Positions 42,293 to 58,174 of a stretch of 64,000 nucleotides of DNA are shown one piece after another. The stretch lies in contig CAWAWS010000002.1 of NCBI GenBank assembly GCA_963785725.1, positions 1 through 64,000 on the forward strand. Reading direction: 5' to 3'. Position numbers and translations under genes: made by a program. The notes under the pieces are model-generated. The model made no database searches, had not been told where the DNA came from, and worked only from the letters and a program-made list of their open reading frames with translations. The DNA comes from an uncultured delta proteobacterium (lineage in GTDB: Bacteria; Myxococcota_A; Polyangia; Palsa-1104). The stretch's first letter is position 1. Each line of letters starts with the position of its first letter.

Positions 42293-43624
42293 GGGCCCGC
42301 GAATGCACAAGTCGACCGTTCAACCTTGTGCGTCGCGCGGCTTGATCACGTAGTTCCAGTCACCGTGGAAGTCGTGCCTGTCGATCTTGATCTCCCGCAG
42401 TTCCTTCGCCGTGACCTTCTTGCCAATTGGATAGTTGCGACGATCGAGCCGCGCACTCACCACGAGCCCGCCGACGTTCGTCGTGTTACCGATGAGGTTG
42501 ATGATCGTCTCGTACGACCGCAGCGGTCGCCCTCGCCAGTTGATCGATATGAACGAAAACAGTCGGTGCTCGACCTTGTTCCACTTGCTGGTGCCCGGCG
42601 GAAAATGGCTGACGTGGACTGCCAACCCGATCTTATCTGCCAGTCGCTGCAACTGCTGCTTCCAGACGTGTGACCGATAGCTGTTACTGCCGCCAGAATC
42701 GGCGGTGATAAAGATGTCTCGCGCCTTCGGATATCGCTTCTGGCCGACGCGGTTCCACCATGCCTCAATGGAAGTCACCGCGAATACCGGCGTGTCGTGG
42801 TCGACTCCCACGCTCACGAAGCCATCGTTGGCGGCCACATCGTAGACGCCGTACGGGATCGCTTTGCCCACCGCGTCCGAGGGAAAGTCGTGTACGTCCA
42901 CCAACTCCGGTTCTCCTTTGGGCTGCCATTCGCGCCCGCCGTTCTTGAAGTTGCCGACCAACTCTTTCTTCTTCGTGTCGACGGAGATCACCGGCACGCC
43001 ACGCTCGACGCACGCTCGAGCCTTCGCGTTGATGTGCTCGAACTGCGCGTTGCGGTCTGGATGCTGCGCTCCCTCGACCGATTTGTTCGGTGCCTGCAGG
43101 CTATAGCCGTGGCTGCGGAGCAATTTAGCCACGGTCCGGTCACTGACCCGAATCATGTGTTGGGCGAACAACTCGGCTGACAGCACTTGCGTACTTTTGC
43201 TCGTCCACCGCAGCGGCGACTCCGGATCGCCCCGCGTGACCGGATCAATGAGCCTTTCGAGCGCTGGCCATACCGTCGGATGCGCGACTTCGAACGGTCG
43301 CTTCCCGTTGCTGCGCCGGACCTTGACCACGTCTTCTGGGCGCGCGCCGGCGCGGGCTTCGTCGCGACCCTTGCGCACGGTGCTGATCGCCATTCCCGTC
43401 GCCCGCGCCACAGCGGCCACACCTCCGTAGCCAATGGCGCCTCCCTCGGGGCCGGCCCACAGTCGACGCGCCCGCTCGTCCATCGTCGGCTTCAACAGTC
43501 GCCACTTCTGACGAACCAGCTCTTCGGTGCCCACCCTGAAGGTAGATCACGCCCGGTTGTCCTTGTCGATCCTTCGCGCGACCTTTATTCGCACAACTCG
43601 ATCGACTCAGCCATTCGCGGGCCC
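42293..43624 (-). mobile_element. Intact ISAzo13-family insertion sequence
   Basis: TIRs GGGCCCGCGAATG-N4-AGTCGA at both ends; flanking TTA duplication at 42290-42292 and 43625-43627. Confidence 0.92.
42320..43534 (-). CDS. ISAzo13-family transposase
   Basis: TRGDPESPLRWTSKS, HPDRNAQF, ISVDTKKKELVGNFKN, KAIPYGVYD, PPGTSKWNKVEHRLFS, FHGDWNY. Confidence 0.95.
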   Translation of the reverse strand: MGTEELVRQKWRLLKPTMDERARRLWAGPEGGAIGYGGVAAVARATGMAISTVRKGRDEARAGARPEDVVKVRRSNGKRPFEVAHPTVWPALERLIDPVTRGDPESPLRWTSKSTQVLSAELFAQHMIRVSDRTVAKLLRSHGYSLQAPNKSVEGAQHPDRNAQFEHINAKARACVERGVPVISVDTKKKELVGNFKNGGREWQPKGEPELVDVHDFPSDAVGKAIPYGVYDVAANDGFVSVGVDHDTPVFAVTSIEAWWNRVGQKRYPKARDIFITADSGGSNSYRSHVWKQQLQRLADKIGLAVHVSHFPPGTSKWNKVEHRLFSFISINWRGRPLRSYETIINLIGNTTNVGGLVVSARLDRRNYPIGKKVTAKELREIKIDRHDFHGDWNYVIKPRDAQG

Positions 43625-43717: not shown

Positions 43718-44356
43718 CTATTCCTGACTAATGAGCCCGCGCCGCAGCGCAAAGCGCGTCAATGCCGCGGCGCTGTGCAAGTCGAGCTTCTTCATGAGGC
43801 TCGTACGATGCACGTCGACCGTCTTGGCCGCGATGCCGATGCGCTCGCCGATCTCGCGATTGGTGAACCCTTCGGCGACGAGCTGCAGCACCTCGCGCTC
43901 GCGCGGCGTCAAGCGCTCCAGGTCGTCGGCCGACTCCGGCTCGAAGTCCTCGTTCAGCGACGATGCGTTGGCCTGCGCGTCGAGGAAGCGCTCGCCGGCA
44001 GCGACGGTGCGAATCGCCGTCACCAAGTCGTCGAGCCCGGCGCCTTTGACGACGTAGCCGAGCGCGCCCGCGCGCAACGCCGGCCGCACGAACTCGGGCG
44101 CCGCGTGCATCGACAAGACGAGCACCTTCGTCGTCGGCGACAGCGTGCGCACGCGGCCTATCGCCTCCATCCCGTTGAGCTCGGGCATCGTCAGGTCGAT
44201 GACGAGCACGTCGGGACGATGCTGCGCCACCGCGTCCAGCGCCGCGCGGCCGTCGGCGGCCTCGGCAGCGATGGTGACGTCGCCCTTGGTCGACAAGATG
44301 GCGCGCACACCCGCGCGCACGATGGCGTGGTCGTCGGCGATGACGATGCGAATCAT
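43718..44356 (-). CDS. NarL/LuxR-family response regulator
   Basis: ADDHAIVRAG, DLTMP (phospho-Asp), GALGYVVK, LTPREREVL...KTVDVHR. Confidence 0.95.
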   Translation of the reverse strand: MIRIVIADDHAIVRAGVRAILSTKGDVTIAAEAADGRAALDAVAQHRPDVLVIDLTMPELNGMEAIGRVRTLSPTTKVLVLSMHAAPEFVRPALRAGALGYVVKGAGLDDLVTAIRTVAAGERFLDAQANASSLNEDFEPESADDLERLTPREREVLQLVAEGFTNREIGERIGIAAKTVDVHRTSLMKKLDLHSAAALTRFALRRGLISQE

Positions 44357-45207
44357 GACGGCAGCTCCTCGAACGGCAGAGTGACACGAATGCGCGTGCC
44401 GGGCCCGGCATCGTCGACGACCGCGAGCGCGCCGCCCGCGACCTGCGCGCGCTCGCGCATCGAGCTCAGCCCGAAGCCGCGCTTGGCCTGGTCGCGAATG
44501 CCGGCGCCGTCGTCGCCGACTTCGAGGCGCAGCTGGTCGTCGACGACGGCGAGCCGCACCCACGCCTGCTTGGCGCCGCCGTGCCGAGCCGCGTTGTGCA
44601 GCGCCTCCTGCATGCTGCGATAGAGCGTCGTCTCGACGTACGCCTGCAGCCTAGGCAGCGTCGGCGGCAGCTCGCAGTGCACGACGAGCCCGGCCGCGCC
44701 CGCGAACGTCTCGCAGTGCCGCTTGATCGCGCCGAGCAGGCCCAGCTCGGCCAGCGCCGGCGGTGCCAGCGCCGTCGTCGAGCGGCGCACCTCGTCGATG
44801 GCCTCATCGACGCAGCTCACGATGCCGGCGATCTCGGGCTGCTTGTCGCTGAGCGTCTCGCGCAGCGCGATGAGCTGGAGGCGCGCCGCCGTCAACGCCT
44901 GGCCCGCGCCATCGTGCAGCTCGCGCGCAATGCGACGGCGATCTTCCTCTTGCAAGGTCAAGGCGCGCTCGCTCATGGCGCTTTCGACGAGCTTCTTGGT
45001 CGCCGCCGCCGCCCGCGCCGGCGCGGCGTACAAGAGCAGCGCCAGCAGCATCGCGACGAGCGCGAAGCCTCCCGCCACCAGCTTGGTCTCGAGCAAGAGC
45101 GGCCCGGTATCCGACGGCAGCGCGCGTGCCGGCTCGAGCGCCCAGGCCATCGAGCACGGCAGCATCACGAGGAGGCCGAGCAACCACTGTCGCCACACGC
45201 TGCGCAT
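44353..45207 (-). CDS. HisKA_3 sensor histidine kinase, copy 1
   Basis: RRRIARELHDGAGQ, QEALHNAARHG, DDGAG, GFGL.SMRER. Signal-like N-terminus plus one TM; ATGA overlap with the regulator. Confidence 0.93.
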   Translation of the reverse strand: MRSVWRQWLLGLLVMLPCSMAWALEPARALPSDTGPLLLETKLVAGGFALVAMLLALLLYAAPARAAAATKKLVESAMSERALTLQEEDRRRIARELHDGAGQALTAARLQLIALRETLSDKQPEIAGIVSCVDEAIDEVRRSTTALAPPALAELGLLGAIKRHCETFAGAAGLVVHCELPPTLPRLQAYVETTLYRSMQEALHNAARHGGAKQAWVRLAVVDDQLRLEVGDDGAGIRDQAKRGFGLSSMRERAQVAGGALAVVDDAGPGTRIRVTLPFEELPS

Positions 45208-45298
45208 CGGTTCGCGCGCTCGAGTATACGGCCTGCGCGTCCAATATCGTGGCCATCGGGCTTGCAATCGCCGGCGGCAAACTGCACGCTTCGGCGAG

Positions 45299-45769
45299 AT
45301 GGACGCGACCGTCTTCGCCACGATCGCCCGGCCGCTGATCCTCGTGCACAGCGTCTGCGCCATCCTGCTCGTCGTCGCCAGCACGCGCCACGCGCTCGTC
45401 GCCATCGACTACGGCCGCGGCCGCTACAAGGTCCACGTCGGCCACGTCTTCGCCGCCACCGTCGCCGCGCTCTACGTCGCCACGATGACGCTGGGCGCGC
45501 TCGTCTATCCGACCTATCGCTACTACGTGCGCGGGCTCTTCCTCGATCGCCACGCGCCATGGGCGTCGAACCTGTTCTCGATCAAGGAGAACCTGGCGAC
45601 GATCGGGCTGCCGCTGGCGCTGGGCGCGTTCGTCTTGAGCCGCGTGCTCGATCCCGAGCGCGATCGCGTCATGCTGCCAGGCTATATCGGCCTCGTCATC
45701 CTGCAGACGGCGATCGTCTGGTTCAACCTGCTGGCCGGCTTGTGGGTCACGATGATGCGTGGCGTCTGA
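45299..45769 (+). CDS. 4-TM membrane protein
   Basis: Four hydrophobic helices; LVH..C, YPTYRYYVR, F.IKEN motifs. Confidence 0.75.
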   Translation: MDATVFATIARPLILVHSVCAILLVVASTRHALVAIDYGRGRYKVHVGHVFAATVAALYVATMTLGALVYPTYRYYVRGLFLDRHAPWASNLFSIKENLATIGLPLALGAFVLSRVLDPERDRVMLPGYIGLVILQTAIVWFNLLAGLWVTMMRGV

Positions 45770-45770
45770 C

Positions 45771-46154
45771 ATGGAGCGGCGCGACACGCTCTACTTCGCC
45801 TGGTGCATCAGCGTCGTCGCCGCCAGCGTCGCCTTCGTCGTCCCGGCGTTCACGGCCGTGCGCATCTTTTGGTACTACCCATTGCGCCATGCTTGGGCTT
45901 TCGAGACGCATCCGAGCGCGTTCGCCGTCGATTGGTACGGGCGCTCGGTGTGGGCCTTGGCTGCCGGCGGCATCGCCTTCGCGCTCGCGTCTTTCGTGCT
46001 GCCGCGACTGCGAAAGCCGTCGGCGCGCGCTTATCGTTTGTGGGCGGCATGGGCGCTGACGGCGACAGTGCTGGCGATCGCCGTCTACAGCTATCAGCTC
46101 GCACGTCGCCATCCGATCCCCGAGCCGCTGCCGTCGTGGTACGTCCCGCGCTGA
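45771..46154 (+). CDS. 3-TM membrane protein
   Basis: Directly follows the previous gene; three hydrophobic helices; WYYP and WYGR motifs. Confidence 0.75.
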   Translation: MERRDTLYFAWCISVVAASVAFVVPAFTAVRIFWYYPLRHAWAFETHPSAFAVDWYGRSVWALAAGGIAFALASFVLPRLRKPSARAYRLWAAWALTATVLAIAVYSYQLARRHPIPEPLPSWYVPR

Positions 46155-46164
46155 CCGCTTCCTG

Positions 46165-46806
46165 TTAGACCGACGACCAGCGCTGCACGAGCTCGGCAAT
46201 CTCGGCCGGCGTACTCACGAGCGCATCCGGCGCCGCCTCGCGCAGCCGCTCGGGATCATCGGCGCCCCAGGTCACGCCGATGAAGCGGATGCCGACGGCG
46301 CGGCTGGCCTCGATGTCGCGGTGCTCGTCGCCCACGTAGACGACTTGCGTCGGCTCGGCGTGCGCGCGCCGCAAGATGCCGCGCAAGAGGTGCGCCTTGC
46401 CGAAGAGTCGGCTGCTGCAGGAGATGCTCGTCATCAGCGTGTCGAGCCCATGCCGCGCCAGGATCGCGCGAATGTTCTCCTCGCGGTTCGTCGACGCGAC
46501 CGCCAGCGTGAGACCGCGCTCGTGCAGCGTCTGCAAGAGTTCCGGCACGCCGTCATGCACGCGCACGCGCTCGGTCGCGTGGCGCAACAGGCGACCGACC
46601 TCGACAATGAGGCCCGGCAGACGACGCGCCGGCACGCCCAAGCGCCGGCAGCGCTCCAAGATCGACAGCGTTCGCAGCTCGGCGAGGTTGTGCTTCGTGA
46701 TCTTCGTGTAGCCACGCTCGTCGGCGAGGCCATTGTACAGCTCGACGACCACGTCCAGCGAATCGACCAGCGTTCCATCGAAGTCGAACACGACGTGCGA
46801 AATCAC
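46165..46806 (-). CDS. HAD-family phosphatase
   Basis: FDFDGTLVDS, ASTN, GK, YVGDEHRDIEA, GVTWG. Confidence 0.92.
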   Translation of the reverse strand: MISHVVFDFDGTLVDSLDVVVELYNGLADERGYTKITKHNLAELRTLSILERCRRLGVPARRLPGLIVEVGRLLRHATERVRVHDGVPELLQTLHERGLTLAVASTNREENIRAILARHGLDTLMTSISCSSRLFGKAHLLRGILRRAHAEPTQVVYVGDEHRDIEASRAVGIRFIGVTWGADDPERLREAAPDALVSTPAEIAELVQRWSSV

Positions 46807-46841
46807 GGCTCGGCACTTTAGCCGGAAGAATCGTACGCGTC

Positions 46842-46857
46842 TAAGGCAGGCACCTTA
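46842..46857. promoter_or_regulatory. TAAGG-N6-CCTTA box 1
   Basis: TAAGGcaggcaCCTTA, 35 bp upstream of the ATG at 46893; same arms at 55713, 56013 and 56051. Confidence 0.8.
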
Positions 46858-46892
46858 TGGGGTCGCGCCGTCGACGTCGTCATCCTGGCAGC

Positions 46893-47081
46893 ATGAAGAT
46901 CAGGTTGAGCCTTCTGTTTGCCGTCGTGCTCGCCGTCGGATGCGGCACGGCAGCGCCCATCAAGACGGCGCGTCTCGCCACCGATGACCAGTGCTGGTCC
47001 GACGGCACGCAGTGCACGCGCTCGAGCGACTGCTGCAGCATGTGGTGCGTCAATTCCTACTGCGAGCGGAGGGAGCCGTGA
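46893..47081 (+). CDS. Small knottin-like (C-C-CC-C-C) lipoprotein, copy 1
   Basis: Lipobox LAVGC; CWSDGTQCTRSSDCCSMWCVNSYCERREP; paralog at 55789. Confidence 0.85.
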   Translation: MKIRLSLLFAVVLAVGCGTAAPIKTARLATDDQCWSDGTQCTRSSDCCSMWCVNSYCERREP

Positions 47082-47518
47082 AGCGGACCCTGCTCGCGCT
47101 CGTGCTCGCCGGCGGCTGCGCGCACTTTGCCGACAGCGAGCTGCGCCCGCCCGACGCGCGCATCGTCGACGAGTATGCGGCTGTGCGCGCCGGCGCGGCC
47201 GCGAAGCGGTCGGACCCGGCCTACTGCTTCGTCCGCGACGGCAAGGGCGTCAAGGTGACCGCGCAATGGCCGCGCGTCGTCGACGAGGAGGCTTACGTCT
47301 TCGCCGACGACATGATCGCCGACAACGTGGCCACGCGGCTCAGCGGCGACAGCGAGCTCGTCGGCGCCGGCCTGCGCTCGCGCGTCGTCAACCGCGTCGT
47401 CTACTTGAACGGCCGCGCCAGCGACGCCGCCGGCGCGCGCGCGATCTACGACGCCTTGAGCATTCCCGCCGTCAGCGCCGTCTACGCCGAGCTCGAACGG
47501 CCCGCGGCGTCGCACTGA
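47078..47518 (+). CDS. BON-domain lipoprotein
   Basis: GTGA overlap; LAGGC lipobox; DDMIADNV..RL...V.NRVVYLNG...V.AV..EL. Confidence 0.78.
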   Translation: MKRTLLALVLAGGCAHFADSELRPPDARIVDEYAAVRAGAAAKRSDPAYCFVRDGKGVKVTAQWPRVVDEEAYVFADDMIADNVATRLSGDSELVGAGLRSRVVNRVVYLNGRASDAAGARAIYDALSIPAVSAVYAELERPAASH

Positions 47519-47520
47519 AC

Positions 47521-48929
47521 GTGACGGCAACGCACACGCGCATGCACAGCGCGTCTCGGCTGCTCGGCGGTCTCGTCGTCCTCCTCGTCGCCGGCTCGGC
47601 CCGCGCCGACGACACGTCGAGCCCGGTGCGCGCGATGTCGCTGGCCGAGGCGCTCGCGTATGCCGAGGCGCACGCGCCCGACCTGCGCGCCGCACGCGCC
47701 CGCGTCGAAGCCGTGCGCACGCAGCGCGACGTGTCGCAGGCGCGCTGGTACCCGACCGTCACCGGCGCCGTCGAGCTCTTCGCCGGCACCGCCAACAACA
47801 GCACCGGCTCGTACGTGCCAGTCAGCGGCTTCGACAACCCGCGCGTCAGCGCCACCGCCGCGCGCAACGCGTCGGACAACGCGTGGTCGCCGCACGCGAC
47901 GTCGCTCCTCGGCCTCGGCGCGCGCCAAGAGGTCTACGACTTCGGCCGCATCAGCCAGCAGAGTGCCGCCGACGCGCTGCGCACGGACGCCGAGCGCATC
48001 TCGGCGACGGGCGTCAAGCTCGTCGTCGACGAGGCGATCGAAGAGGCCTACTTCGCCGTCTACGCGGCCAAAGCGGTGGTGCAGGCGGCGCAGAGCGCGA
48101 TGGCGCGCGCGCAGGTCCATCGCGATCAAGCCAAAGCCGCGGTCGATGTCGGCATGCGGCGGCCGATCGATCTCACGCGCGCGCAGGCCGTGCTCGATCG
48201 TTACGAGCTGGCCGGCATTCGCGCCCGTGGCAGCGTCACCGTCGCCCAAGCGACGCTCGCGGCGACGGTCGGCGTGCCCGATCGACTGCTCGATATCGCC
48301 GCGACACCGCCCACGCCGTCGGAGCTGCCGTCGCTGCAAGCGGCGATTGAGGCCGCCGATCGCAACCCCGAGCTGCGCAGCGTGGTCACGCTCATGCGGG
48401 CGCAAGAGAAGCAAACGCAGGCCATCGCGCGCCGAGCTGCGGCCGAATCTCTTCGCGTCGGGCGCCATCTCCGGCAACGCCGGCGGGGCCACGCCGTCGA
48501 GCGGCGAGCGCGCCGAGTACGACGGCTTCTTGCCGGTCGTGCCCAACTGGGACGTCGGGCTCGTGCTGTCGTGGCCGCATCTTCGATCAGACGGTGCGCG
48601 CGCGCGCCAACCAGTCGCGCGCGCAAGTGGCGCTCTATCGCGAGCAGGCGGCGGCGGTGCAGCGTCGCTTGGCGGGCGCGATTCAGGTCGCGTACACCGA
48701 GGTCGTCGTCGCGCGTGATGCGCTGCCCGTCCTGCAACGGACCTTGAGGCGGCGGTCGCCAACTACAACCAGGCCAACGCGCGCTTCGACGCGGGCATGG
48801 GCAACGCCGTCGAGCTGGCCGACGCCGAGGAGCTGCGCACCACGGCCGAGATCGAGCTGGCGCGCGGGCAATTCGAGCTCGCGCGTGCGCGCGCCGTCGC
48901 TCGGTCGATTCATTGCGGAGGGACTGTGA
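47521..48929 (+). CDS. TolC-family outer-membrane efflux protein (several apparent frameshifts)
   Basis: MSLAEALAYA, EEAYFAV, IDLTRAQ, RFDAGMGNAVELADAE, spread over shifting frames after about 48430. Confidence 0.85.
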
Positions 48930-50128
48930 CCGAATCTGTCGCCGGACGACGCGCTCGGAAGCTGCGTATCTCGCTCATCATCGTCGCCTTGGCGGCGACG
49001 GCGCTCGCTCTTGGCGCTGGGCATGATGCTGCGCGCCGAGGCGCACGTGAACAAGGTCGCGCTCGCCGACGCGCCGCGCCCGGTGTCGGTCGTGACGGCG
49101 CGCGCCGAGACCTACCGCAAGCCGCGCCATTACGTCGGCACGCTTCGCCCGTGGGTCGAGGCCAACGTCGGCCCGCAGTTCGTCTCGGCCTACGTCGACA
49201 CCGTGCTCGTGCGCCCGGGCGCGCACGTCAAGCGCGGCGAGGTGCTCGCGACGCTCGACTGCCGCAACGCGAGCACGGCGAGCGCGCGCCGTCGCGATCG
49301 CAGGCGCGCGCCATCGAGGCGCGGCAGAAGGCGATCGCCGACGAGTCGCAGCGGCAGTCGAAGCTGCTCGACGGCGGCTTCGCGTCGGCCAACGAGGTCG
49401 AGCAGGCGCTGGCGCAGAGCGGCGGCCGAGGCGGCGCAGCTCGAGGCGCAGAAGGCGCACGCTCGCCCGCTCGACGCTCGAGGTCGAGCGACTGCGTCCT
49501 GCGCGCGCCCTTCGACGGCGAGGTCGGCGACCGCTTCGTCGACCCGGGCGCGTTCGTGCGTCCGGGCACGGCTATCGTCTCGGTCGTCGATCGCAGCACG
49601 GTGCGCTTCGTCGCCGACGTGCCCGAGGTCGGACTTCGACGTCGTCGCGCCGAAGACGCGCCGTGCACATCCACGTCGACGCGACCGGCCAGCAGCTCGA
49701 CGGCAGCATCGCGCGCCGCGCGCCGCACGCCGACGCCGACGCGCGCACCGTTCACTTCGAGGTCGACCTCCCCAACCCCGGTCGCGACGATTCCCGTCGA
49801 CACCACGGGCGAGGTCACGATCGGCTTCGGGGCGCCGATCGCCGTCACCGCGATCCCGCTCTACGCCGCGACGGTCGCGCAACGGCAAAGCCACCGTCTT
49901 CAGCGTCGACGGGCGACATCGCGCACGCGACCAGCGTTCGTCGTGCTCGGCGAAGCCGGCGGCACGCTCTTCCTCGAGCCGACGCTCGCGCCGGGAACGC
50001 GCGTCGTCACCGAAGGGCGCGCGCTCTTGAACGACGGCGACGCGTCGCCGCCGGCATCGACCAACTCGCCGAGCAGCAGCTCGGGCAATCGACGGCCGCG
50101 CCCGCGCCACAGCGGTGGCGCGCGATGA
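48926..50128 (+). CDS. RND periplasmic adaptor (MFP; several apparent frameshifts)
   Basis: VLVRPGAHVKRGEVLA, VLRAPFDGEV, VDPGAFVRPG, RTVHFEVD, VVTEG. Confidence 0.85.
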   Translation: MTESVAGRRARKLRISLIIVALAATALALGAGHDAARRGAREQGRARRRAAPGVGRDGARRDLPQAAPLRRHASPVGRGQRRPAVRLGLRRHRARAPGRARQARRGARDARLPQREHGERAPSRSQARAIEARQKAIADESQRQSKLLDGGFASANEVEQALAQSGGRGGAARGAEGARSPARRSRSSDCVLRAPFDGEVGDRFVDPGAFVRPGTAIVSVVDRSTVRFVADVPEVGLRRRRAEDAPCTSTSTRPASSSTAASRAARRTPTPTRAPFTSRSTSPTPVATIPVDTTGEVTIGFGAPIAVTAIPLYAATVAQRQSHRLQRRRATSRTRPAFVVLGEAGGTLFLEPTLAPGTRVVTEGRALLNDGDASPPASTNSPSSSSGNRRPRPRHSGGAR

Positions 50129-53100
50129 CCTGGCTGTCGCTGCGCAACCCGATCGCGATCCTGATGCTGTGCGTCGGGCGTCATCGTCTTCGCGTGCGTC
50201 GTCACGCCGCGCATGAGCGTCGACACGTTCCCCGAGCTGACGCCGCCGGTGCTCATCGTCGGTGAGGTCGCGCCCGGGCTCGCGGCCAAGGACGTCGAGA
50301 AGGCCGTCGCCTGGCGCATCGAGCGCTACGTCGCGGCCACGCCCGGCGTCGACCACGTCGAGAGCCTGTCGCGCAACAACTTCGCGCTCATCTACGTGTG
50401 GCTCAAGTGGGGCACGGACCTCAGCGCCGCGCAGACGCTCGTGCAGTCGGAGGCGGCGTTCGCGATGGCCGGCGCGCCCAAGTCGCTCGGGCTCTTGCCG
50501 CCGTTCGTCCTGCAGTACGACCCGTCGAACGCGCCCGTCTGCCAGATCGTCATCACCGGCGCGGGCTACAGCGGCTCGCAGCTCTACGACTACGCGCAGA
50601 ACTACATCGAGCCGCAGATCGAGGGCATCGACGGCGTCGGCAGCGCGCCCGTCGACGGCGGGCGCCCGCGGCAGATCAACGTCGTCGTCGACCCGGTCAA
50701 GGCGCAGGCGCGGCACGTCACGGCCGAGGACGTCGCCGCCGCGGTCGGCCAGCGCCAACGCGCTCCTGCCCTCGGGCGAGTTCATCGCGCCGAAGCTTCG
50801 ACGCCAACGTCTACACCAACGGCGTCCCCAAGGACGTCGCGACCATCGGCGAAGGCACGGTCAAGGTGGTCGACGGCAAGCCGGTCCTGCATCAAGGACG
50901 TCGCGCGGCGTCGAAGACGGCGGCATGCCGCAGACGCAGGTCGTCTCCGTCAACGGCCGGGACGCCGTCTACCTCAACGTCCTGCGCATTCCCGGCGGCA
51001 ACACGATCGCAGATCGTCGACGCCGTCAAGGACAAGGTCGCGCACCTGACAGCCTGCCGCCGGGCATGCACGCGGCAGGTCTACTTCGATCAGTCGACGT
51101 TCGTGCGCACCACGTACGACGGGCTGAAGCGCGAGATCGTCCAGGCGCTCGTCCTCATCGCCATCGTCATCCTGATCTTCCTGCAGAGCCTGCGCGGCAC
51201 CCTCATCGTCTCCGTCGCCATCCCGCTGTCGTTCGCGATCACGCTCATCGTCCTCTACGCCAGCGGGCCAGACGCTCAACGCGTTCACGCTCGGCGGGCT
51301 GACCTGGCGATGGGCCGGCTCGTCGACGACGCGGTCGTCGTCCTCGAGTCGATCCACCGCCACCGGCAGCGCGGGCATGGACGCCGCGACGGCCGCGCTC
51401 GAAGGCGCGAACGCCGTGGCGCTGCCAGTGCTCGCGTCGACGCTGACGACGATGGCCGTGCTCTTGCCCGTGCTGCTGCTCGCCGGCCTGGCAAAGCGGC
51501 TCTTCGCGCCGCTCGCGCTGACCGTCGCCGTGGCGATGATCGCGTCCTACTTCGTCAGCCTCGCGGTCACGCCGGTCGCCTGCCGCTACTTCCTGGGCCA
51601 CGGCCGAGCCGGGCGGCCTGGCGCGCACGTTCGAGCGGCTCATCGACCGACTCGCCGACGGCTACGCGAGCGCGCTCGGCCGCGTGTTGCACGCGCGGCC
51701 GGCCATCGTTCTCGCGTCGCTGGCGCTCGTCGTCGTGCAGCGTGTGGGCGGCGGCGCGCCTGCCGAGCACGTTCTTCCCCGAGATCGACGAGTCGATGGA
51801 GATGCTCTACGTCCGCTTCGCGCCCGGCATCTCCGTCGTCAGACGCGGCCGAGCGAGCTGTCGGCGATGGGCGCGACGCTTGAAGCGCGAGCTGCCGCCG
51901 GGGACGATTCGCGATGATCGTCACCAACATCGGCATGCCCGCAGGAGCAGCGCAGCCTCCTCGCGAGCCCGAACGTCGCGCCCAACACCGGCTTTCTGCG
52001 GCTCGCCTTCGCGCCGCCCGAAGATCGCACGCTGTCGCAAGGCGAGATCGTCGTCAAAGCGCGCGAGATCCTCACCCGCGAGTTCCCCGGCGTCGAGGTG
52101 CTGCAGTATCCGGGCGGCCTCGTCGCCAGCGTGTTCGCCAACGGCTACACCGCGCCGCTCGTCGTCGAGCTGCAGAACGAGGACCTCGGCGCAGCTCGAC
52201 GCCGAGGCGCGCGCCGTCGCCGCCGTCGCGCGCAACACGTGCCCGGCGTGCGCGACGTCAAAGAGTCGATGCAGATGGACTACCCCGAAGTGCGCGTCGA
52301 GACCGATCGCGAGCGCTCGGGCTTCGTCGGCAGCTCACTGCGCGACGCGGCGCAGGCGACGCTCGAAGCGACCACCGGCAACATCAACACGCCCGGCGTC
52401 TGGGTCGACGCCAACAACGGCCGCGCCTACTACGTCGTCACTTACTACGACGGCAAAGTGGTCACCGACACGCAGTCGCTCGGCGCGCTGCCGGTGCACT
52501 ACAGCAAGGACAAGCGGCCGGTGCTGCTCGGCGCCTACGGCAACGTGCATCGCACCGTCGGCGCTGTCGCCGTCGAGCGCAGCCGCATGCAGCGCGTCGC
52601 GCACGTGCTCATGCAGACCGAGGGGCGCGACCTCGGCTCGGCCGCCGGCGAGCTCGACCGCCGCCTCGCCGCCGACCCGCGCACGCGCCACATTCGCTAT
52701 CGCTTCGTCGGCCAGGTCGACCTCATGCGCACGACCTTCTCGGGCCTCGGCGCTCGCGCTTGGCGCTGGCGGTGATGGTCGTGTTCATGATCATGGCCTC
52801 GCAGTTCAAGTCGCTGCGCTTGCCGTTCGTCATGCTGTTCACGATTCCGGTGGCGCTCTTCGGGATCGTCTTGGCGCTGCTCGCCGCCGGTCAGGGCTTC
52901 TCGATCACCGCGCTCATGGGCGTGCTGATGGTCATCGGCATCGCGGTGTCGAACGGCATCCTGCTCGTCGACGACGCCAATCGCCGCCTCGTCGAAGGCG
53001 CGCCGGCGGAAGTGGCCATCGTCGAAGCGGCGCGCTCGCGCTTCGTGCCCATCCTCATGACGACGCTGGCGACCATCATCGGCCTCATTCCGACGGCGAT

Positions 53101-53263
53101 GGCGCTCGAGCACGGCTCGGAGGCCAATCAGCCGCTGGCGCTGGCCGTCGTCGGTGGCCTCACGTCGTCGACGGTCATCTCGCTGTTCCTCGTGCCGGTG
53201 ATGTTCCTCTTCTTTGCCAAGCGCGGCGGGCAGCCGATTCCGGGCGAGACGCACCACGTCTAA
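50125..53263 (+). CDS. AcrB/AcrD/AcrF-family RND permease (many apparent frameshifts)
   Basis: LRNPIA, VDTFPEL, AIPLS, GRLVDDAVVVLE, F.PLALTV, GIAVSNGILLVD, R.VPILMT, PLA.AVVGGL across frames. Confidence 0.9.
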
Positions 53264-53270
53264 CGAGCCG

Positions 53271-54986
53271 CTAGAAGTTGATCTGCAAGCGGAACAGCAG
53301 CTCGTGCTCGTAACGGTGGAAGAAGAGGTTCTTCTCGATCAGCGCCGACGTCGCGTGTGAATCGCCGCCGCCGACGTAGTTGAACCCGTAGTTGGCCATG
53401 AGGCGCGCGTTGCGCGTGACCCAAAAGTTGGCGCCGGCCAAGAGCGTGTCGAGCTGATAGTGCCCTTGCGCCGGGTCGAACGCGGCGTGCGTCGTCGCCG
53501 TGGGCGGCAGGTCGATGATGCCGAGCTCGTTGTGCTCGTAGCGCAGCGCGAGCTGCACGGCCCAGCGCGGCAGCGGCGGCGGCGAGTAGCCCTTCCAGTG
53601 CGGCACCGTGTACAAGCCGGGATGGTCGACCTCGAGCGGCCCGCCGATCCACGCGTAGACCTCGGCGTAGCCACCGTAGCCGTCGAGAAAGCCGCGCGGC
53701 CCGGCGGTGCGCGCCGTCGTCGTGTCGTCGTAGCGGCGCACCTGCTGCGACTCGTGCAGGAATTCGCCGCGCAGACCGAAGCGCTCCGTCAGCGGCACGT
53801 TGAGCTCGATGGCGTACTTCAGCGTCGTGCCGTCGGGCGCCAGGTGCGAGCGGACGGCGTTCTTGCTGGCGTCGGTGCCGTTGCCGTAGTTGCTGCTGAA
53901 GATCGAAAAGCCGCTCTCGGTCGATAGGCCGCCGACGTCGCCGGCGGTGGCGCCCGTCGTCGATGGCGCGCTCGATCCGCCGACGTTGTCCGAGCGCTGC
54001 CACCAGAACGACGCGCCGATCCAAATCTCCTCCATCCAGCGCGCGTGATTCGGCACGAGCGAAATCGGCGCGACGAAGCCGCGACCCAACACCGCCGGCT
54101 GGTTATCGAGGTTCTTGAAGCCCTGCCCTTCGCCGTTAAAGATGCCGACGTAGTAATGGCCGAGATGACGCGGCAAAACGCCGTGCACCATCGCGCCCGT
54201 GTCGCGCGTCTGCGGCACGGCGAAGCGAATCGGCGACGCCTTCTCCAAGAAGTCGGTGTAGTTCTCGGTCGTCATGTTCTCGAGCGAAAACGGCGGATAG
54301 AACTGCCCGACTTGCAGCTGCAGCCACGGCACGATGTTGATGTCGGCCTCCGCAATGGCCGCCGTGCTGTATTGGCCGCTCGACGGCACCGTCGCCAGCT
54401 CGGCCTCGATGCGGAAGTCGATGACCTTGACGAACGTGCCGGCCATGCCGAGTCGCGCGCGGCGAATGAAGACGGTGTCGCGCAAGGTAGCCCGCGGATC
54501 GGCGGCGCTGTTGGGCACGACGCCGGCGGGCGGCGCCGGTCGATTGAGGAAGTTGTACCAATCGATGTTGATGCGCCCCTTCGGGATGAGCACGAACCAG
54601 CTATGGCGATCGCGCAGGAAGAAGCTCTTCTCCGAGTAGCCGGCCAGCGGCGCCAGCAGCTCGGGATCGTCGCCGCGCGTCGACAAGGCGGGCACCGCCA
54701 GCGTCGTGCGCGAGCCGAGCGACGGCGGCGGCGCGTCGGCGGCAGGTAGACCGGACGCCCGTTGCAGTCGCTGAATCTCGACGCGCTGCTGCTGCACGAC
54801 CTCTTCGAGCTGCTGCTGCCGCCGTAACACCTCCGCGAGCGTGTCGGTGTCGGCGGCCTGGACGTCCGTCGCCGTGACCGCGGCATCGGGCGCGCCTCCG
54901 TCAGGCGTGACGACGTCCGAATCCGCCGACGCCGCACGCCCAATACCGAGCAGCAGCAGCACGAGCAACACGCTTCGCAACGACAT
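53271..54986 (-). CDS. OprO/OprP-like (phosphate-selective-type) porin
   Basis: Signal peptide, coiled coil, IRRARLG, GQF.PPFSLE, RDTG.M, G.FNG.G, terminal RLQINF. Confidence 0.82.
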   Translation of the reverse strand: MSLRSVLLVLLLLGIGRAASADSDVVTPDGGAPDAAVTATDVQAADTDTLAEVLRRQQQLEEVVQQQRVEIQRLQRASGLPAADAPPPSLGSRTTLAVPALSTRGDDPELLAPLAGYSEKSFFLRDRHSWFVLIPKGRINIDWYNFLNRPAPPAGVVPNSAADPRATLRDTVFIRRARLGMAGTFVKVIDFRIEAELATVPSSGQYSTAAIAEADINIVPWLQLQVGQFYPPFSLENMTTENYTDFLEKASPIRFAVPQTRDTGAMVHGVLPRHLGHYYVGIFNGEGQGFKNLDNQPAVLGRGFVAPISLVPNHARWMEEIWIGASFWWQRSDNVGGSSAPSTTGATAGDVGGLSTESGFSIFSSNYGNGTDASKNAVRSHLAPDGTTLKYAIELNVPLTERFGLRGEFLHESQQVRRYDDTTTARTAGPRGFLDGYGGYAEVYAWIGGPLEVDHPGLYTVPHWKGYSPPPLPRWAVQLALRYEHNELGIIDLPPTATTHAAFDPAQGHYQLDTLLAGANFWVTRNARLMANYGFNYVGGGDSHATSALIEKNLFFHRYEHELLFRLQINF

Positions 54987-55024
54987 TCGCGATCTCCAGG
55001 CGCACATGACGCCGGATCGCGTTG

Positions 55025-55058
55025 TCCGTTATAACGGATAAAATGTCAATATAACGGA
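55025..55058. promoter_or_regulatory. Palindromic operator TCCGTTATAACGGA plus adjacent half-site upstream of the porin
   Basis: Perfect 14-bp palindrome at 55025-55038; TATAACGGA again at 55050-55058; TTGACA on the minus strand at 55044-55049. Confidence 0.7.
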
Positions 55059-55675
55059 TGCGCGTGCTGGTGCGAATGCGGCAGGAACTGCGCGACCAGA
55101 TACAGGCGCGCTTCGACGGAGGCGCGATTGATGAAGGCGTGCGGCGAGTCGGAGAGGAAATGGATGGCATCGCCGAGCTCGAGCTGCTGGAGCTGCGAGT
55201 CCCACTCGATGTCGAGCGCGCCCCCAGCGACCACGAGGTTGACGAGCGTGCCGGGCGGATGCGCCTCCGACCGCACGATCGCGCCGGGCTGCAGCGTCAG
55301 CTCGTAGGTCTGCACCGCGGTCGTCCGCTCTTGCGGACGCAACGGCCGCGACGCGATTAAGGAGTCGCGCGACCGCACCCAGCGCGCCGTCTCTTTGCGC
55401 ATGATGACCGTCGGTGAGCGCGGCTCCGCGAGCAGCGCGCTGGTGGTCGTGCCGAGCGCGCGGGCGATCGCCGGCACGATGTCGAGGGACGGCCACTGCA
55501 GCCCGAGCGAGAAACGGCGCAAGGTCTTCACGTCGACGCCCGAACGCTCGGCCAGCGACTCCAAGGTCAGCTTGCGCTCGCGTCGCAGCCGCTCGAAGTT
55601 TTCACGCCAGCGTTCGCACAGCTCCTCGTCGCTCTCGCGCAGAGGTCGCATGGCCGTGGGCGATGGCGTGGACAC
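55046..55675 (-). CDS. XRE HTH + cupin transcriptional regulator
   Basis: LRRERKLTLESLAERSGV...PSL..IARALG; cupin EAHPPGT...L.LGDAIHF.SDSPHAF.N. Confidence 0.9.
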   Translation of the reverse strand: MSTPSPTAMRPLRESDEELCERWRENFERLRRERKLTLESLAERSGVDVKTLRRFSLGLQWPSLDIVPAIARALGTTTSALLAEPRSPTVIMRKETARWVRSRDSLIASRPLRPQERTTAVQTYELTLQPGAIVRSEAHPPGTLVNLVVAGGALDIEWDSQLQQLELGDAIHFLSDSPHAFINRASVEARLYLVAQFLPHSHQHAHPLY

Positions 55676-55712
55676 CTCGTCCAGAGCTACCGGAAGCGGC
55701 CGACTCAGTCCC

Positions 55713-55728
55713 TAAGGCATCCACCTTA
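55713..55728. promoter_or_regulatory. TAAGG-N6-CCTTA box 2
   Basis: TAAGGcatccaCCTTA upstream of the XRE-cupin gene. Confidence 0.75.
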
Positions 55729-55763
55729 GACGCGGCGATAGCACTCGGCGACGCCCGACGTTA

Positions 55764-55777
55764 TCCGTCATAGCGGA
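55764..55777. promoter_or_regulatory. Second copy of the TCCGT-N4-(A/G)CGGA operator
   Basis: TCCGTCATAGCGGA, 12/14 identical to 55025-55038, upstream of the XRE-cupin gene. Confidence 0.6.
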
Positions 55778-55788
55778 CGCAGGTGCGC

Positions 55789-55977
55789 TTACGGCTCGCG
55801 GCGCTCGCAGTAGCCGTTGACGCACCACTGGCTGCAGCAGTCGCGGCTGTGCTGACAGACGGTGCCCGAGTCGATGCACATCTCTTCAGGCTTGACCAAG
55901 GAGAACATGCGCTCGCGCTCGGCGCCGCAACCCGCCAACAGCGCCGACGCCAAAACCAGAGACGCGAAAAGCTTCAT
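55789..55977 (-). CDS. Small knottin-like lipoprotein, copy 2
   Basis: Lipobox LLAGC; CIDSGTVCQHSRDCCSQWCVNGYCERREP; same length (62 aa) as copy 1. Confidence 0.85.
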   Translation of the reverse strand: MKLFASLVLASALLAGCGAERERMFSLVKPEEMCIDSGTVCQHSRDCCSQWCVNGYCERREP

Positions 55978-56012
55978 AAGGCGAGCATGAAGTCGTCGAC
56001 GCGCTGACCCCA

Positions 56013-56066
56013 TAAGGCCGTGACCTTAGGCGGTAACGATTTCGTCTAGCTAAGGTCACTGCCTTA
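56013..56066. promoter_or_regulatory. TAAGG-N6-CCTTA boxes 3 and 4 in a divergent promoter region
   Basis: TAAGGccgtgaCCTTA (56013-56028) and TAAGGtcactgCCTTA (56051-56066). Confidence 0.8.
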
Positions 56067-56141
56067 TAGGGCGCGCACACGCGAGCCATCAGACTTCGGG
56101 CATCACGCAGCGGCTGCCTTGCCGGCGGCGGCGCGACCCCG

Positions 56142-56999
56142 ATGAGAATGCTGACAGCGACATTGCTAAAGTTGCCGATGGCGATGCTGCTGACGTGCTC
56201 GACGTCGGCGTGGGCGGCGCCGGTGCGGGCGCTCGCTGCCGATACGGGACCGCCGCTCGTCGCGACCAAGTGGGCGGCGGTCGGGTTCGCGGTGCTGGCG
56301 GTGCTGCTGGCGACCCTGCTTTACGCGTTGCCGACACGCGCGGCGGCCGCCACCAAGCGTCAGCTCGAGCTGGCGCTCGGCGAGCGCGCGCTCACGCTGC
56401 AAGAGGAAGATCGCCGTCGCATCGCGCGCGAGCTGCACGACGGCGCGGGTCAGGCGCTGACGGCGGCGCGATTGCAGCTCATGGCGCTGCGCGAAGGCGT
56501 GACCGCGGCGCCGCGCGAAACTATCGGCGCCATCGTCGGCTATGTCGACGAGGCCATCGACGAGGTGCGGCGATCGACGACGGCACTGACGCCGCCGGCC
56601 TTGGCCGAGCTCGGGCTCGTGGGCGCGATCGTGCGGCACTGCGACACGTTCACGGCCAGCGCTCGACTGAAAGTAAACCGCGAGCTGCCGACCGAGCTGC
56701 CGTCGCTGCCGTCGTACGTCGAGACGACCATCTACCGCAGCGTGCAAGAGGCGCTGCACAACGCCGCGCGCCACGGCGGCGCCACGCAAGCGTGGGTGCG
56801 CCTCGCCGTCGACGGCGGACAGCTACGGCTCGAAGTCGGCGACGATGGCGCCGGCATCGCCGACCAGGCGCAGCGCGGCTTCGGCCTCGGCTCTATGCGC
56901 GAGCGCGCCCAAATCGCCGGCGGCGCGCTCACGGTCGTCGACGACGCCGGGCCGGGCGCGCGCATTCGCATCACAGTGCCGTTCGAAGTAGTCGCCTGA
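56142..56999 (+). CDS. HisKA_3 sensor histidine kinase, copy 2 (no adjacent regulator)
   Basis: Close paralog of 44353..45207; ERALTLQEEDRRRIARELHDGAGQALTAARLQL is identical. Confidence 0.93.
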   Translation: MRMLTATLLKLPMAMLLTCSTSAWAAPVRALAADTGPPLVATKWAAVGFAVLAVLLATLLYALPTRAAAATKRQLELALGERALTLQEEDRRRIARELHDGAGQALTAARLQLMALREGVTAAPRETIGAIVGYVDEAIDEVRRSTTALTPPALAELGLVGAIVRHCDTFTASARLKVNRELPTELPSLPSYVETTIYRSVQEALHNAARHGGATQAWVRLAVDGGQLRLEVGDDGAGIADQAQRGFGLGSMRERAQIAGGALTVVDDAGPGARIRITVPFEVVA

Positions 57000-57503: not shown

Positions 57504-58148
57504 ATGATGCGCGGTCGCAGCACCGCCGGCTTCGTATGCGTCGTGCTGACACTCGCTGCTTGCGCCGGCACTCGACCCGCCAGCCGCGCTGACCCCATCG
57601 ACACGTGCACGCCGGGCAACGCCGCTGCCTATCACGAGCGTGCCCGCGAGCTCGAGCAGCGCGACCCGGCCGCGAGTCTTCGCGCGCTATCTTGCGCGTG
57701 CGTGCTGGAGCACGCCGAGTCCTGCTACGACCTCGCCGTTTACGAAGCGGACCACGGCGGAATCTCCAGCGCCGTCACCCACTACGAGCTCGCGTGCCGA
57801 CTGCGCCACGCGCCAGCCTGCTACAACCTCGGCACTTGTCTCGTCAGCGGTCCGTGCCCGAGCGACGCCACGCGCGGCGCGCAGTTGCTCCGTCAAGCCT
57901 GCGAAGGCGGCGTACCGCACGCCTGCCTCAATCTCGGCAACAGCTACGTTCTCGGCCGCGGCGTCGAGCGCCGCCCCGACGAGGGCGTGGCGCTTCTCGC
58001 GCGCACCTGCGACGCCGGCGTCGCCCTCGCCTGCTACAACTTGTCCGTCCTCTTGACCACCGGCCCGGTCGCGCACGACGAAGCACGCGCCGCCGAGCTG
58101 CGTGAGCGTGCGTGCCGCGGCGGCGTCGAAGGCGCCTGCGCACCGTGA
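57504..58148 (+). CDS. Sel1-like repeat lipoprotein (Cys-rich, Hcp-like)
   Basis: LAAC lipobox; repeated AC.....AC.NLG....G.GV.....A units. Confidence 0.88.
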   Translation: MMRGRSTAGFVCVVLTLAACAGTRPASRADPIDTCTPGNAAAYHERARELEQRDPAASLRALSCACVLEHAESCYDLAVYEADHGGISSAVTHYELACRLRHAPACYNLGTCLVSGPCPSDATRGAQLLRQACEGGVPHACLNLGNSYVLGRGVERRPDEGVALLARTCDAGVALACYNLSVLLTTGPVAHDEARAAELRERACRGGVEGACAP

Positions 58149-58174
58149 GACTCGTTGCAACCTTGGGAGAAGAG

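Follow-up and report, generated by a model that had tools for sequence, protein, structure and literature searches.

Positions 43718 to 56999 of a 64,000-nucleotide stretch of DNA from an uncultured delta proteobacterium (the window, whose coordinates are used throughout) are proposed here, at a probability of roughly 0.45, to encode an envelope regulon that is lineage-specific and self-contained and has at its centre one subtype of TolC-MFP-RND pump (MFP, membrane-fusion protein; RND, resistance-nodulation-division) and an OprO/P-like porin. The stretch belongs to an 8.9-Mb assembly rated 88% complete (G000). A gene map compiled from the open reading frame (ORF) listing and Pfam scans revealed two short histidine kinases, a NarL/FixJ-type regulator, two knottin-like lipoproteins (peptides 1 and 2), a BON-TolC-MFP-RND run, an XRE-family regulator and a porin, all in the orientations given by a first-pass annotation of the same DNA.

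Common control of these genes is suggested by an 18-bp palindrome, CTAAGG-N6-CCTTAG, with the extended form CTAAGG-N6-CCTTA[T/G][G/A]GG. Its core, TAAGG-N6-CCTTA, was found exactly four times in the 8.9-Mb genome, each time in the locus (46842, 55713, 56013 and 56051). In the window, these four matches compare with 0.12 expected and a count of four was reached in none of 100 shuffles, while spacers of 2-11 bases other than 6 gave 0 to 1 genome match each. Each box is oriented to one unit. The box at 46841..46858 (+), CTAAGGCAGGCACCTTAT, faces peptide 1 and with it the BON-TolC-MFP-RND run; that at 55712..55729 (-), which reads CTAAGGTGGATGCCTTAG on the minus strand and is the sole perfect 18-mer, faces the XRE/cupin-porin unit; and those at 56012..56029 (-) and 56050..56067 (+) face peptide 2 and kinase 2, respectively, which share a 128-bp control region with two boxes. 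Across 41 other genomes of the order, neither an exact match to the 18-mer nor a cluster was found, and matches with one mismatch were scattered and rarer than those of a reversed control pattern. The earlier proposal that efflux and porin genes are controlled together is plausible, since the same palindrome stands before all four units and nowhere else in the genome.

A -10-like hexamer was found 21-22 bases past all four boxes (CATCCT, CATGCT, CAGACT and TAGCTC), and in three of the units the start codon lies 6-7 bases past the hexamer, namely at the second Met codons of the peptides (46893 and 55977) and at the GTG of the XRE gene (55675). We infer leaderless transcripts for these units, with the boxes centred near -44 in an activator-like position, and a leader of about 40 bases for kinase 2. 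The peptides most likely start at the second Met as 62-aa precursors, because their homologues begin there and the part upstream of it would be promoter DNA; given leaderless transcripts, the apparent conservation of an N-terminal 'MGS.RRR.H' would likewise be that of promoter DNA. Scanning 55000-56200 for sigma-70 promoters revealed a single site at 55076-55048 (-), TTCGCA-17-TATATT, inside the 3' end of the XRE gene. With this sigma-70-like site just upstream of its start, the porin may have a promoter of its own; no terminators were found in the scan of the same stretch. A sigma-54 promoter consensus in the form of a short motif matched at chance level both in the window and in a related metagenome locus (L016, described below) and was rejected.

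In the proposed circuit, kinase 1 and the regulator would be made constitutively, as no box lies upstream of their operon. A membrane- or pump-related cue would then yield phosphorylated NarL regulator, which would bind the boxes as a dimer and so activate all four units, namely peptide 1 with the BON lipoprotein and the pump, peptide 2, the XRE-porin unit and kinase 2; the induction of kinase 2 would provide positive feedback. The peptides would be outputs of the regulon, that is, envelope lipoproteins working with the pump or the outer membrane, and not conserved sensors of the kinases. With four operators that are absent elsewhere in the 8.9-Mb genome, one regulator and two kinases, this would constitute a compact and directly testable circuit.

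The NarL/FixJ-type regulator (43718..44356, -; 212 aa) combines a receiver domain with the C-terminal GerE/LuxR-type helix-turn-helix (HTH) of its class (Pfam Response_reg, 91.7 bits; GerE, 70.1 bits; both over cut-off), and the start of its gene overlaps the stop of kinase 1 by 4 bases. That it is shared by both kinases, as had been suggested from the sequence, is plausible because the kinases differ in 1 of 38 residues around the phospho-accepting His and because the closest regulator paralogue in the genome is only 47% identical. The second candidate for reading the box is the XRE-family HTH and cupin regulator (55046..55675, -; 209 aa; Pfam HTH_3, 35.8 bits; Cupin_2, 29.9 bits). We tentatively place the NarL regulator ahead of it on account of the box position and of the box upstream of kinase 2.

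The XRE/cupin protein could instead act as a ligand-responsive local repressor of its own gene and of those for porin, pump, peptides and kinase 2, with the palindrome as its operator and with the NarL two-component system acting on other sites or only indirectly; we consider this possible, if somewhat doubtful. Autoregulation is typical of XRE-family repressors, and the sole perfect 18-mer does lie upstream of the XRE gene itself, whose cupin domain could bind a small molecule. The missing box before the regulator-kinase 1 operon fits the same explanation, as does the finding that the orthologous regulators in 9 of 12 related loci come without such boxes. Against it speaks the position of the boxes, which, given the -10 elements proposed above, lie near -53 to -36 and thus upstream of the promoter core, as would be expected of an activator. 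Kinase 2, moreover, has a box of its own, fitting autoregulation of a two-component system, and the TAAG/CTTA half-site is one that we take to resemble the boxes of NarL/FixJ-family regulators such as GacA and RcsB.

Within the proposed regulon, the pump run begins with peptide 1 and continues with a BON-like lipoprotein (47078..47518, +; 146 aa; lipobox LAGGC), which scored 26.5 bits against Pfam BON at a cut-off of 27 (E = 8e-6). It is followed by a TolC-family outer-membrane channel (47542..48929, +), an RND membrane-fusion (adaptor) protein (48926..50128, +; both ends approximate) and an RND permease of the AcrB/ACR_tran type (50125..53274, +), so that OEP/TolC, MFP and ACR_tran genes are adjacent, as in a tripartite RND pump. 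Convergent to the run lies the OprO/P-like porin with an N-terminal extension (53271..55007, -; 578 aa), which matched Pfam Porin_O_P with 57.7 bits (cut-off 20.9) over just profile positions 28-165 of 370. The porin is OprO/P-like by this family match, and its anion selectivity is only putative. A porin paralogue of 62% identity was found at C17:4018-6468 (L066), next to a DUF2325 protein, a GNAT acetyltransferase and an ABC1 kinase; that locus holds no box, peptide or pump.

The two peptides are encoded at 46893..47081 (+; open frame from 46857) and 55789..55977 (-; open frame to 56013) and are 49% identical to each other. In a whole-assembly tblastn search (8.9 Mb), they and the kinases were present only as their two window copies. 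Each peptide is built of a lipoprotein signal, a linker of about 16 residues and a six-Cys domain, the mature form comprising about 45 residues and ending in an invariant C-x6-C-x5-CC-x3-C-x4-C..ERREP. They are predicted to be lipoproteins, with lipoboxes (...LAVGC and ...LLAGC) behind a hydrophobic stretch and a lipobox Cys conserved in at least 90% of 31 aligned family members. Across these 31 members the six-Cys spacing is invariant, and it falls within the knottin consensus, C-x(3-7)-C-x(3-8)-CC-x(0-7)-C-x(1-6)-C.

An AlphaFold model calculated from a 10-row alignment showed a C-terminal beta hairpin, with pLDDT values of 81-92 over residues 31-60 and of 73 for the last two. Foldseek returned nothing at E ≤ 1e-3; its best rows (E ≥ 0.6), which are not significant alone, were nearly all knottins (EETI-II, spider toxins, omega-atracotoxin), superimposing with a root-mean-square deviation of 0.8-1.7 Å over 25-30 residues. 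Using VIA-align, 7 of the 10 rows with Z ≥ 2 were small toxin peptides (best Z 2.5; again not significant alone). Scores against the Pfam toxin families Toxin_18, Omega-toxin and Conotoxin remained sub-threshold, at 19.5 versus 24.3, 18.2 versus 22 and 18.8 versus 25.1 bits, respectively, and a protein atlas gave only weak leads to eukaryotic cysteine-rich peptides (scores 0.77-0.83). We conclude that 'knottin-like' is a reasonable prediction of the fold and that the disulfide pattern is putative.

A profile search of 1.84 billion representatives retrieved 625 at E ≤ 1e-3 and 53 at E ≤ 1e-10. Among 29 family proteins inspected, 25 were of 60-84 aa, with a hydrophobic N-terminus, a lipobox-like Cys and one domain; the other four were larger, three of them with several repeats. 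P0008 and P0012 carry four tandem six-Cys units behind a signal or lipoprotein leader, and P0002 looks like a eukaryotic secreted repeat protein. No member of the family reaches a Pfam threshold, and a full-text literature search found no paper on such bacterial knottin-like lipoproteins. An uncharacterised family of small bacterial knottin-like lipoproteins, with 625 cluster representatives, is thereby brought to light.

The genomic company of the peptides was assessed in several data sets. A word-based search of 5.8 billion proteins yielded one peptide homologue, P0001, of 71% identity. A six-frame search of 40 relatives gave weak matches only, the best having E = 8e-5 and lying inside a 534-aa frame; these were judged by score and frame length and were not each inspected. 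Scanning genome contigs with a three-peptide query gave no match. The phylum-wide six-frame profile search of 400 other genomes, with 15 candidates scored per genome, revealed one convincing match, in G265, with neither pump nor kinase nearby. Five peptide loci (L060-L064, of which L062 is the G265 locus) were found in a scan of species genomes, for which a narrower alignment than the 31-row one was used, and all five lack boxes as well as pumps and HisKA_3 kinases of the types present in the window locus. Seven further loci (L013-L019) came from a metagenome scan, with L015, L016 and L017 being one locus in three samples and L014 and L018 being too short for judging neighbours. The 20-kb L019 encodes a peptide and lacks the kinds of pump, kinase and regulator that are present in the window locus.

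Locus L016 encodes, in this order, an NtrC-type regulator, a 504-aa kinase, a 146-aa lipoprotein, TolC, MFP, RND and two tandem peptide genes, followed by an aspartyl protease, a purple-acid-phosphatase-like protein and a porin-like protein. On the 1.8 kb of L013, an RND C-terminus that is 74% identical to the L016 RND precedes two peptide genes. Defined by at least 74% identity to the L016 protein, the RND subtype is known from three loci, and peptide genes are present in all three. Within the order, the 29 RND matches listed, from 23 of 41 other genomes, are all 60-69% identical; at five such pump loci that were examined, no knottin motif was found, and three of the five lie beside NtrC-type systems.

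Judged from gene neighbourhoods, peptide genes accompany this pump subtype in every known locus carrying it. The conserved partner of the closest peptides would be the pump and not the kinase, and the linkage appears to survive a change of regulatory system. The window locus looks like a pump-porin module in which the usual NtrC-type control has been replaced by a NarL system, kinases devoid of a sensor domain and a private operator; pump-porin adjacency is also seen in G003, in L016 and in a further pump copy on contig C7. As fixed companions of one RND subtype, the closest peptides may point to a hitherto unknown accessory component or product of efflux systems. The protease in L016 is an Asp_protease_2 (retropepsin-like) protein and, together with the purple-acid-phosphatase-like metallophosphoesterase, is encoded at L016:10109-13035 after the two tandem knottin-like genes; its position beside them deserves mention, as the knottin fold is known from protease inhibitors.

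Kinase 1 (HK1; 44353..45207, -; 284 aa) and its orphan paralogue kinase 2 (HK2; 56142..56999, +; 285 aa) are 70% identical and of the same short architecture, with Pfam HisKA_3 (residues 90-152), HATPase_c (residues 192-280) and nothing else. The first-pass annotation had described them as sensor-less, with a signal-like segment and one transmembrane helix. Pfam does find no sensor domain. Hydropathy analysis revealed two hydrophobic stretches in each, separated by a loop of at most 18 residues; in HK1 they span about residues 7-24 and 37-68, in HK2 residues 3-18 and 38-66. Kinases of the intramembrane-sensing class have two transmembrane helices with an extracytoplasmic linker of less than about 25 residues; both this arrangement and the lack of any other input domain were found here.

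Of 41 other genomes of the order, 12 contain an orthologue of the kinases, with cores of 45-57% identity; four genomes of the same genus contain none. The alignments begin at kinase residue 31-33. Ten of the 12 orthologues have 109-118 residues, with a hydrophobic N-terminal start, ahead of the position that only 32 residues precede in the short kinases; the alignments of the remaining two start too late for an N-terminal comparison. In all 12 loci, the gene immediately preceding the kinase encodes a PBP_like_2 lipoprotein, and a regulator orthologue (56-64% identical) is present in nine. From a four-way alignment, kinases 1 and 2 are short of their orthologues by about 95 residues, corresponding to the periplasmic domain. 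Their DTGPLL.ETK stretch equals the D(L/M)APL(I/L)..T juxtamembrane segment of the orthologues, and the second membrane helix is also the same. The conserved P.RAL..DTGP.L..TK stretch to which the earlier annotation had drawn attention is present, then, and is reassigned as the retained juxtamembrane segment of a lost periplasmic domain.

No PBP_like_2 homologue was detected at E ≤ 1e-5 in the window genome, whose assembly is rated 88% complete as stated above. By alignment and gene order, the kinases descend from PBP_like_2-linked kinases with a periplasmic domain of about 110 residues, and the genome appears to have lost both. Their predicted topology is intramembrane-sensing and recently derived, because about 95 residues were lost relative to the orthologues and two hydrophobic stretches with a short loop remain. 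The short form is also present in three database proteins with the same hydrophobic pattern, P0152, P0153 and P0154, being 94, 85 and 77% identical to kinase 1, respectively. Such a recent natural conversion of a periplasmic-sensing into a membrane-only kinase would be useful for understanding the origin and input of intramembrane-sensing kinases.

For the cue of kinases with this topology, membrane state or pump activity is the default assumption. Accessory candidates near the kinases (the peptides, the small membrane proteins memA and memB, the pump) were not found linked to the kinase outside close relatives. As kinase accessories, memA and memB were rejected, their paralogues having no two-component system nearby and both being absent from the 12 kinase-orthologue loci.

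The knottin lipoproteins had originally been proposed as ligands or co-sensors of the kinases. Elaborated, this explanation has them replace the lost PBP_like_2 protein and periplasmic domain as accessory sensors, in the manner of SaeP/SaeQ and SaeS, so that a formerly PBP_like_2-dependent kinase turned intramembrane-sensing and now receives its input from a lipid-anchored knottin; co-duplicated pairs, HK1 with peptide 1 and HK2 with peptide 2, would both feed one NarL regulator and a four-promoter regulon. We regard it as unlikely. In the available DNA, none of 10 other distinct peptide loci (four of them short, at 1-6.5 kb) has such a HisKA_3 kinase, and peptides are likewise missing from all 12 kinase-orthologue loci; conservation of the peptide gene beside the kinase across genomes, as would be expected of a SaePQRS-like or RcsF/NlpE-like system, was not found in these loci. 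At L016, the same pump is accompanied by peptides although the neighbouring two-component system is of the NtrC type, with a sensor region in its kinase. The motif conserved in the loop is explained as an inherited juxtamembrane segment and not as a new binding motif. The residue following the lipid-bearing Cys of the peptides is Gly, which by the sorting rules we presume to apply suggests an outer-membrane location, and a 16-residue tether could not span from there to the inner membrane.

The co-sensor explanation keeps some weight because kinase and peptide were both duplicated, each time as a divergent pair, and because the ancestral kinases adjoin a lipoprotein partner gene, in 12 of 12 loci, that is absent here; the control region shared by peptide 2 and kinase 2 with its two boxes points the same way. 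The co-occurrence across genomes that had been proposed as a check revealed no peptide-kinase linkage beyond one presumed orthologous locus, and the closest peptides are RND-linked. In one Polyangia assembly, P0001 (peptide, 71% identical), P0154 (short kinase, 77% to HK1) and P0158 (TolC, 76%) all report a longest contig of 13,301 bases; on the strength of solely this shared value, they are presumed to be the orthologous whole locus in a relative, and their co-occurrence would show shared ancestry, not an independent kinase-peptide link. When the complex of mature peptide 2 and residues 1-95 of kinase 2 was predicted, the score was 0.00 in a run made without controls, which speaks neither for nor against binding. 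There is a precedent in the intramembrane-sensing kinase SaeS, for which the lipoprotein SaeP and the membrane protein SaeQ are described as auxiliaries (PMC3748130, PMC5083920); kinases of this class receive their input via accessory membrane proteins, lipoproteins or transporters. If true, the co-sensor explanation would mean a SaePQRS-like multi-component sensor in a diderm of the Myxococcota and a first function for a bacterial cystine-knot lipoprotein family with hundreds of clusters.

The BON-TolC-MFP-RND run itself is present as first described, with about 35 frame breaks in TolC (about 4, beyond residue 300), MFP (about 11) and RND (about 20) having been overlooked. A plot of third-codon-position GC content revealed repeated phase changes across these genes, which lack continuous reading frames in the window genome. 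A three-phase Viterbi frameshift map of the window was discarded as noisy, flipping even inside intact ORFs of 1100-1360 aa. For frameshift-aware alignment, the intact TolC, MFP and RND proteins of L016 served as reference (OEP, 154 bits; HlyD_D23/RND_mfp, 58 and 170 bits; ACR_tran, 678 bits). Once frame changes were permitted, all three window proteins aligned over their full length, TolC with 4 changes and 284 of 487 residues identical, MFP with 11 and 256 of 378, and RND with 20 and 832 of 1014 (82%). The 35 changes comprise 30 single extra bases and 5 missing bases, with no in-frame stop, and the N-terminal 300 aa of TolC, in frame, are 76% identical to P0158.

Four soil-metagenome runs of two studies contain no more than 0.16 of the sampled words each. 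Relative to the pump stretch, their contigs have single bases missing or added; among the 12 rows shown (of 97), 6 lie no more than 2 bases from a predicted break site, namely 48577, 48899, 51303, 51734, 52753 and 52758. A second TolC-MFP-RND operon of the same assembly (C7:56300-62100; L069) is likewise split over several frames, and the RND of G002 (L070; a 9-contig assembly rated 53% complete) is likewise fragmented. G003, G004 and G010 gave single full-length RND matches, and internal stops are absent from 27 of the 29 RND matches listed for the rest of the order; in short-read-like assemblies of relatives, the pump genes are intact. We infer that the frame breaks are probably indel errors of the assembly and not decay. 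Assembly-wide indel errors could also touch other genes and the completeness figures.

An alternative in which the pump genes are pseudogenes in decay and the locus is a remnant that no longer functions would accommodate the roughly 35 frame changes, the absence of the extra bases from contigs of close relatives in the four soil runs and a database copy of the window TolC called at 401 aa versus 433-473 aa in relatives, but is quite improbable in view of the preponderance of single-base insertions without in-frame stops, a corrected identity of up to 82%, the similar breaks in the C7 operon and in G002 beside largely stop-free matches elsewhere, and the intact state of boxes, peptides, kinases, porin and XRE gene.

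Several points weigh against the regulon reading. The XRE/cupin protein, whose gene carries the sole perfect copy, could just as well have the box as its operator, and the regulator-kinase 1 operon is without a box. The peptide-pump link rests on three related loci, and no pump lies near the five to six peptide loci that are more distant (L019, L060-L064). Kinase and peptide were apparently duplicated as a divergent pair, the kinase 1-peptide 1 arrangement being mirrored by peptide 2 and kinase 2, and their co-occurrence on the 13,301-base contig of the relative also fits a kinase-peptide partnership. Finally, with its frames broken in the assembly, the function of the pump in this genome is an assumption.

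The mirror layout ascribed to the locus holds for the outward-pointing kinases and the inward-pointing peptides and is imperfect, because three overlooked genes separate kinase 1 from peptide 1. These are memA, a small polytopic membrane protein divergent from kinase 1 (45299..45769, +; 156 aa); memB, a small membrane protein (45759..46154, +; 131 aa), whose start is overlapped by the memA stop; and a HAD-family hydrolase (46165..46806, -; 213 aa; Pfam HAD_2, 117.7 bits). Neither memA nor memB belongs to a Pfam or NCBIfam family, and their single paralogous pair in the genome was found at C7:188076-188950, directly after an ORF with an FtsZ C-terminal domain. On the left, the regulator gene is adjoined by an ISAzo13-family transposase (42320-43534, -; DDE_Tnp_ISAZ013, 443 bits), which looks recently active because copies of 100% and 88% identity are present on C13 and C3, respectively, of the same genome. 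Downstream of kinase 2, a Sel1-repeat lipoprotein-like protein (57504-58148) and a type I phosphodiesterase/alkaline-phosphatase-superfamily protein (58112-59179) are encoded. Together with the HAD phosphatase, the OprO/P-like porin and the PstS-like PBP_like_2 protein of the ancestral kinase module, these two would make up a loose phosphate theme.

Among known systems, the locus comes closest to the intramembrane-sensing kinase systems of Firmicutes and, in addition, to RND loci that are controlled by a two-component system and have small periplasmic companions. As in LiaFSR/VraTSR, BceRS-BceAB, GraXSR and SaePQRS, the window kinases have two predicted membrane helices, a very short outside loop and no other input domain, and as in LiaS/LiaR and VraS/VraR, a HisKA_3 core is combined with a NarL-type partner regulator; the match to NCBIfam LiaS is weak (59 bits versus a cut-off of 450). 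The small regulon, largely confined to its own locus, would also resemble those systems. In contrast to them, the host is a diderm myxobacterium, no LiaF, VraT, BceAB or SaePQ homologue was found, the short form appears to have arisen recently by domain loss from a PBP_like_2-linked kinase, two paralogous kinases would serve one regulator, and the outputs would be an RND pump and a porin. Closest in sequence is the PBP_like_2-HisKA_3-NarL module of Polyangia, with the kinase core and regulator identities given above, which differs in its periplasmic domain of about 110 residues and its upstream PBP_like_2 gene in 12 of 12 loci. No boxes, peptides, or pump or porin of this subtype were found near these 12 loci, the RND gene at L039 being only 26% identical to that of L016.

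RcsF of the Rcs system and NlpE of the Cpx system are enterobacterial outer-membrane lipoprotein sensors, and the analogy drawn to them in the first-pass annotation lies in a small envelope lipoprotein that would inform an inner-membrane signalling protein. No relation in sequence or fold was found, the window peptides being knottin-like with 45 mature residues. They lie, unlike RcsF and NlpE, inside the putative regulon and are pump-linked, and their linkage to the kinase is not conserved beyond close relatives. CusRS-CusCFBA with CusF, CzcRS-CzcCBA with CzcI and BaeSR-MdtABC are RND loci under two-component control with a small periplasmic companion. The window shares with them a TolC-MFP-RND operon beside a two-component system and a small exported protein in or next to the operon that is conserved with the pump. 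It differs from Cus and Czc in its permease, which scored 548 bits for multidrug-type models versus 354 bits for CusA/CzcA, all below the curated cut-offs, and its companion is predicted to be a lipid-anchored six-Cys knottin-like domain, unlike the beta-barrel of the CusF type. With inhibitor cystine knots, such as squash trypsin inhibitors and the toxins of spiders and cone snails, the peptides share the cysteine spacing, the C-terminal hairpin of the model and the structural matches, and they differ from known knottins in being bacterial and in having a lipoprotein signal peptide and a conserved ...CERREP C-terminus. Taken together, the window appears distinct from the known systems by its diderm myxobacterial host, a short kinase recently derived from a PBP_like_2-linked form, a locus-private operator and knottin-like lipoprotein companions.

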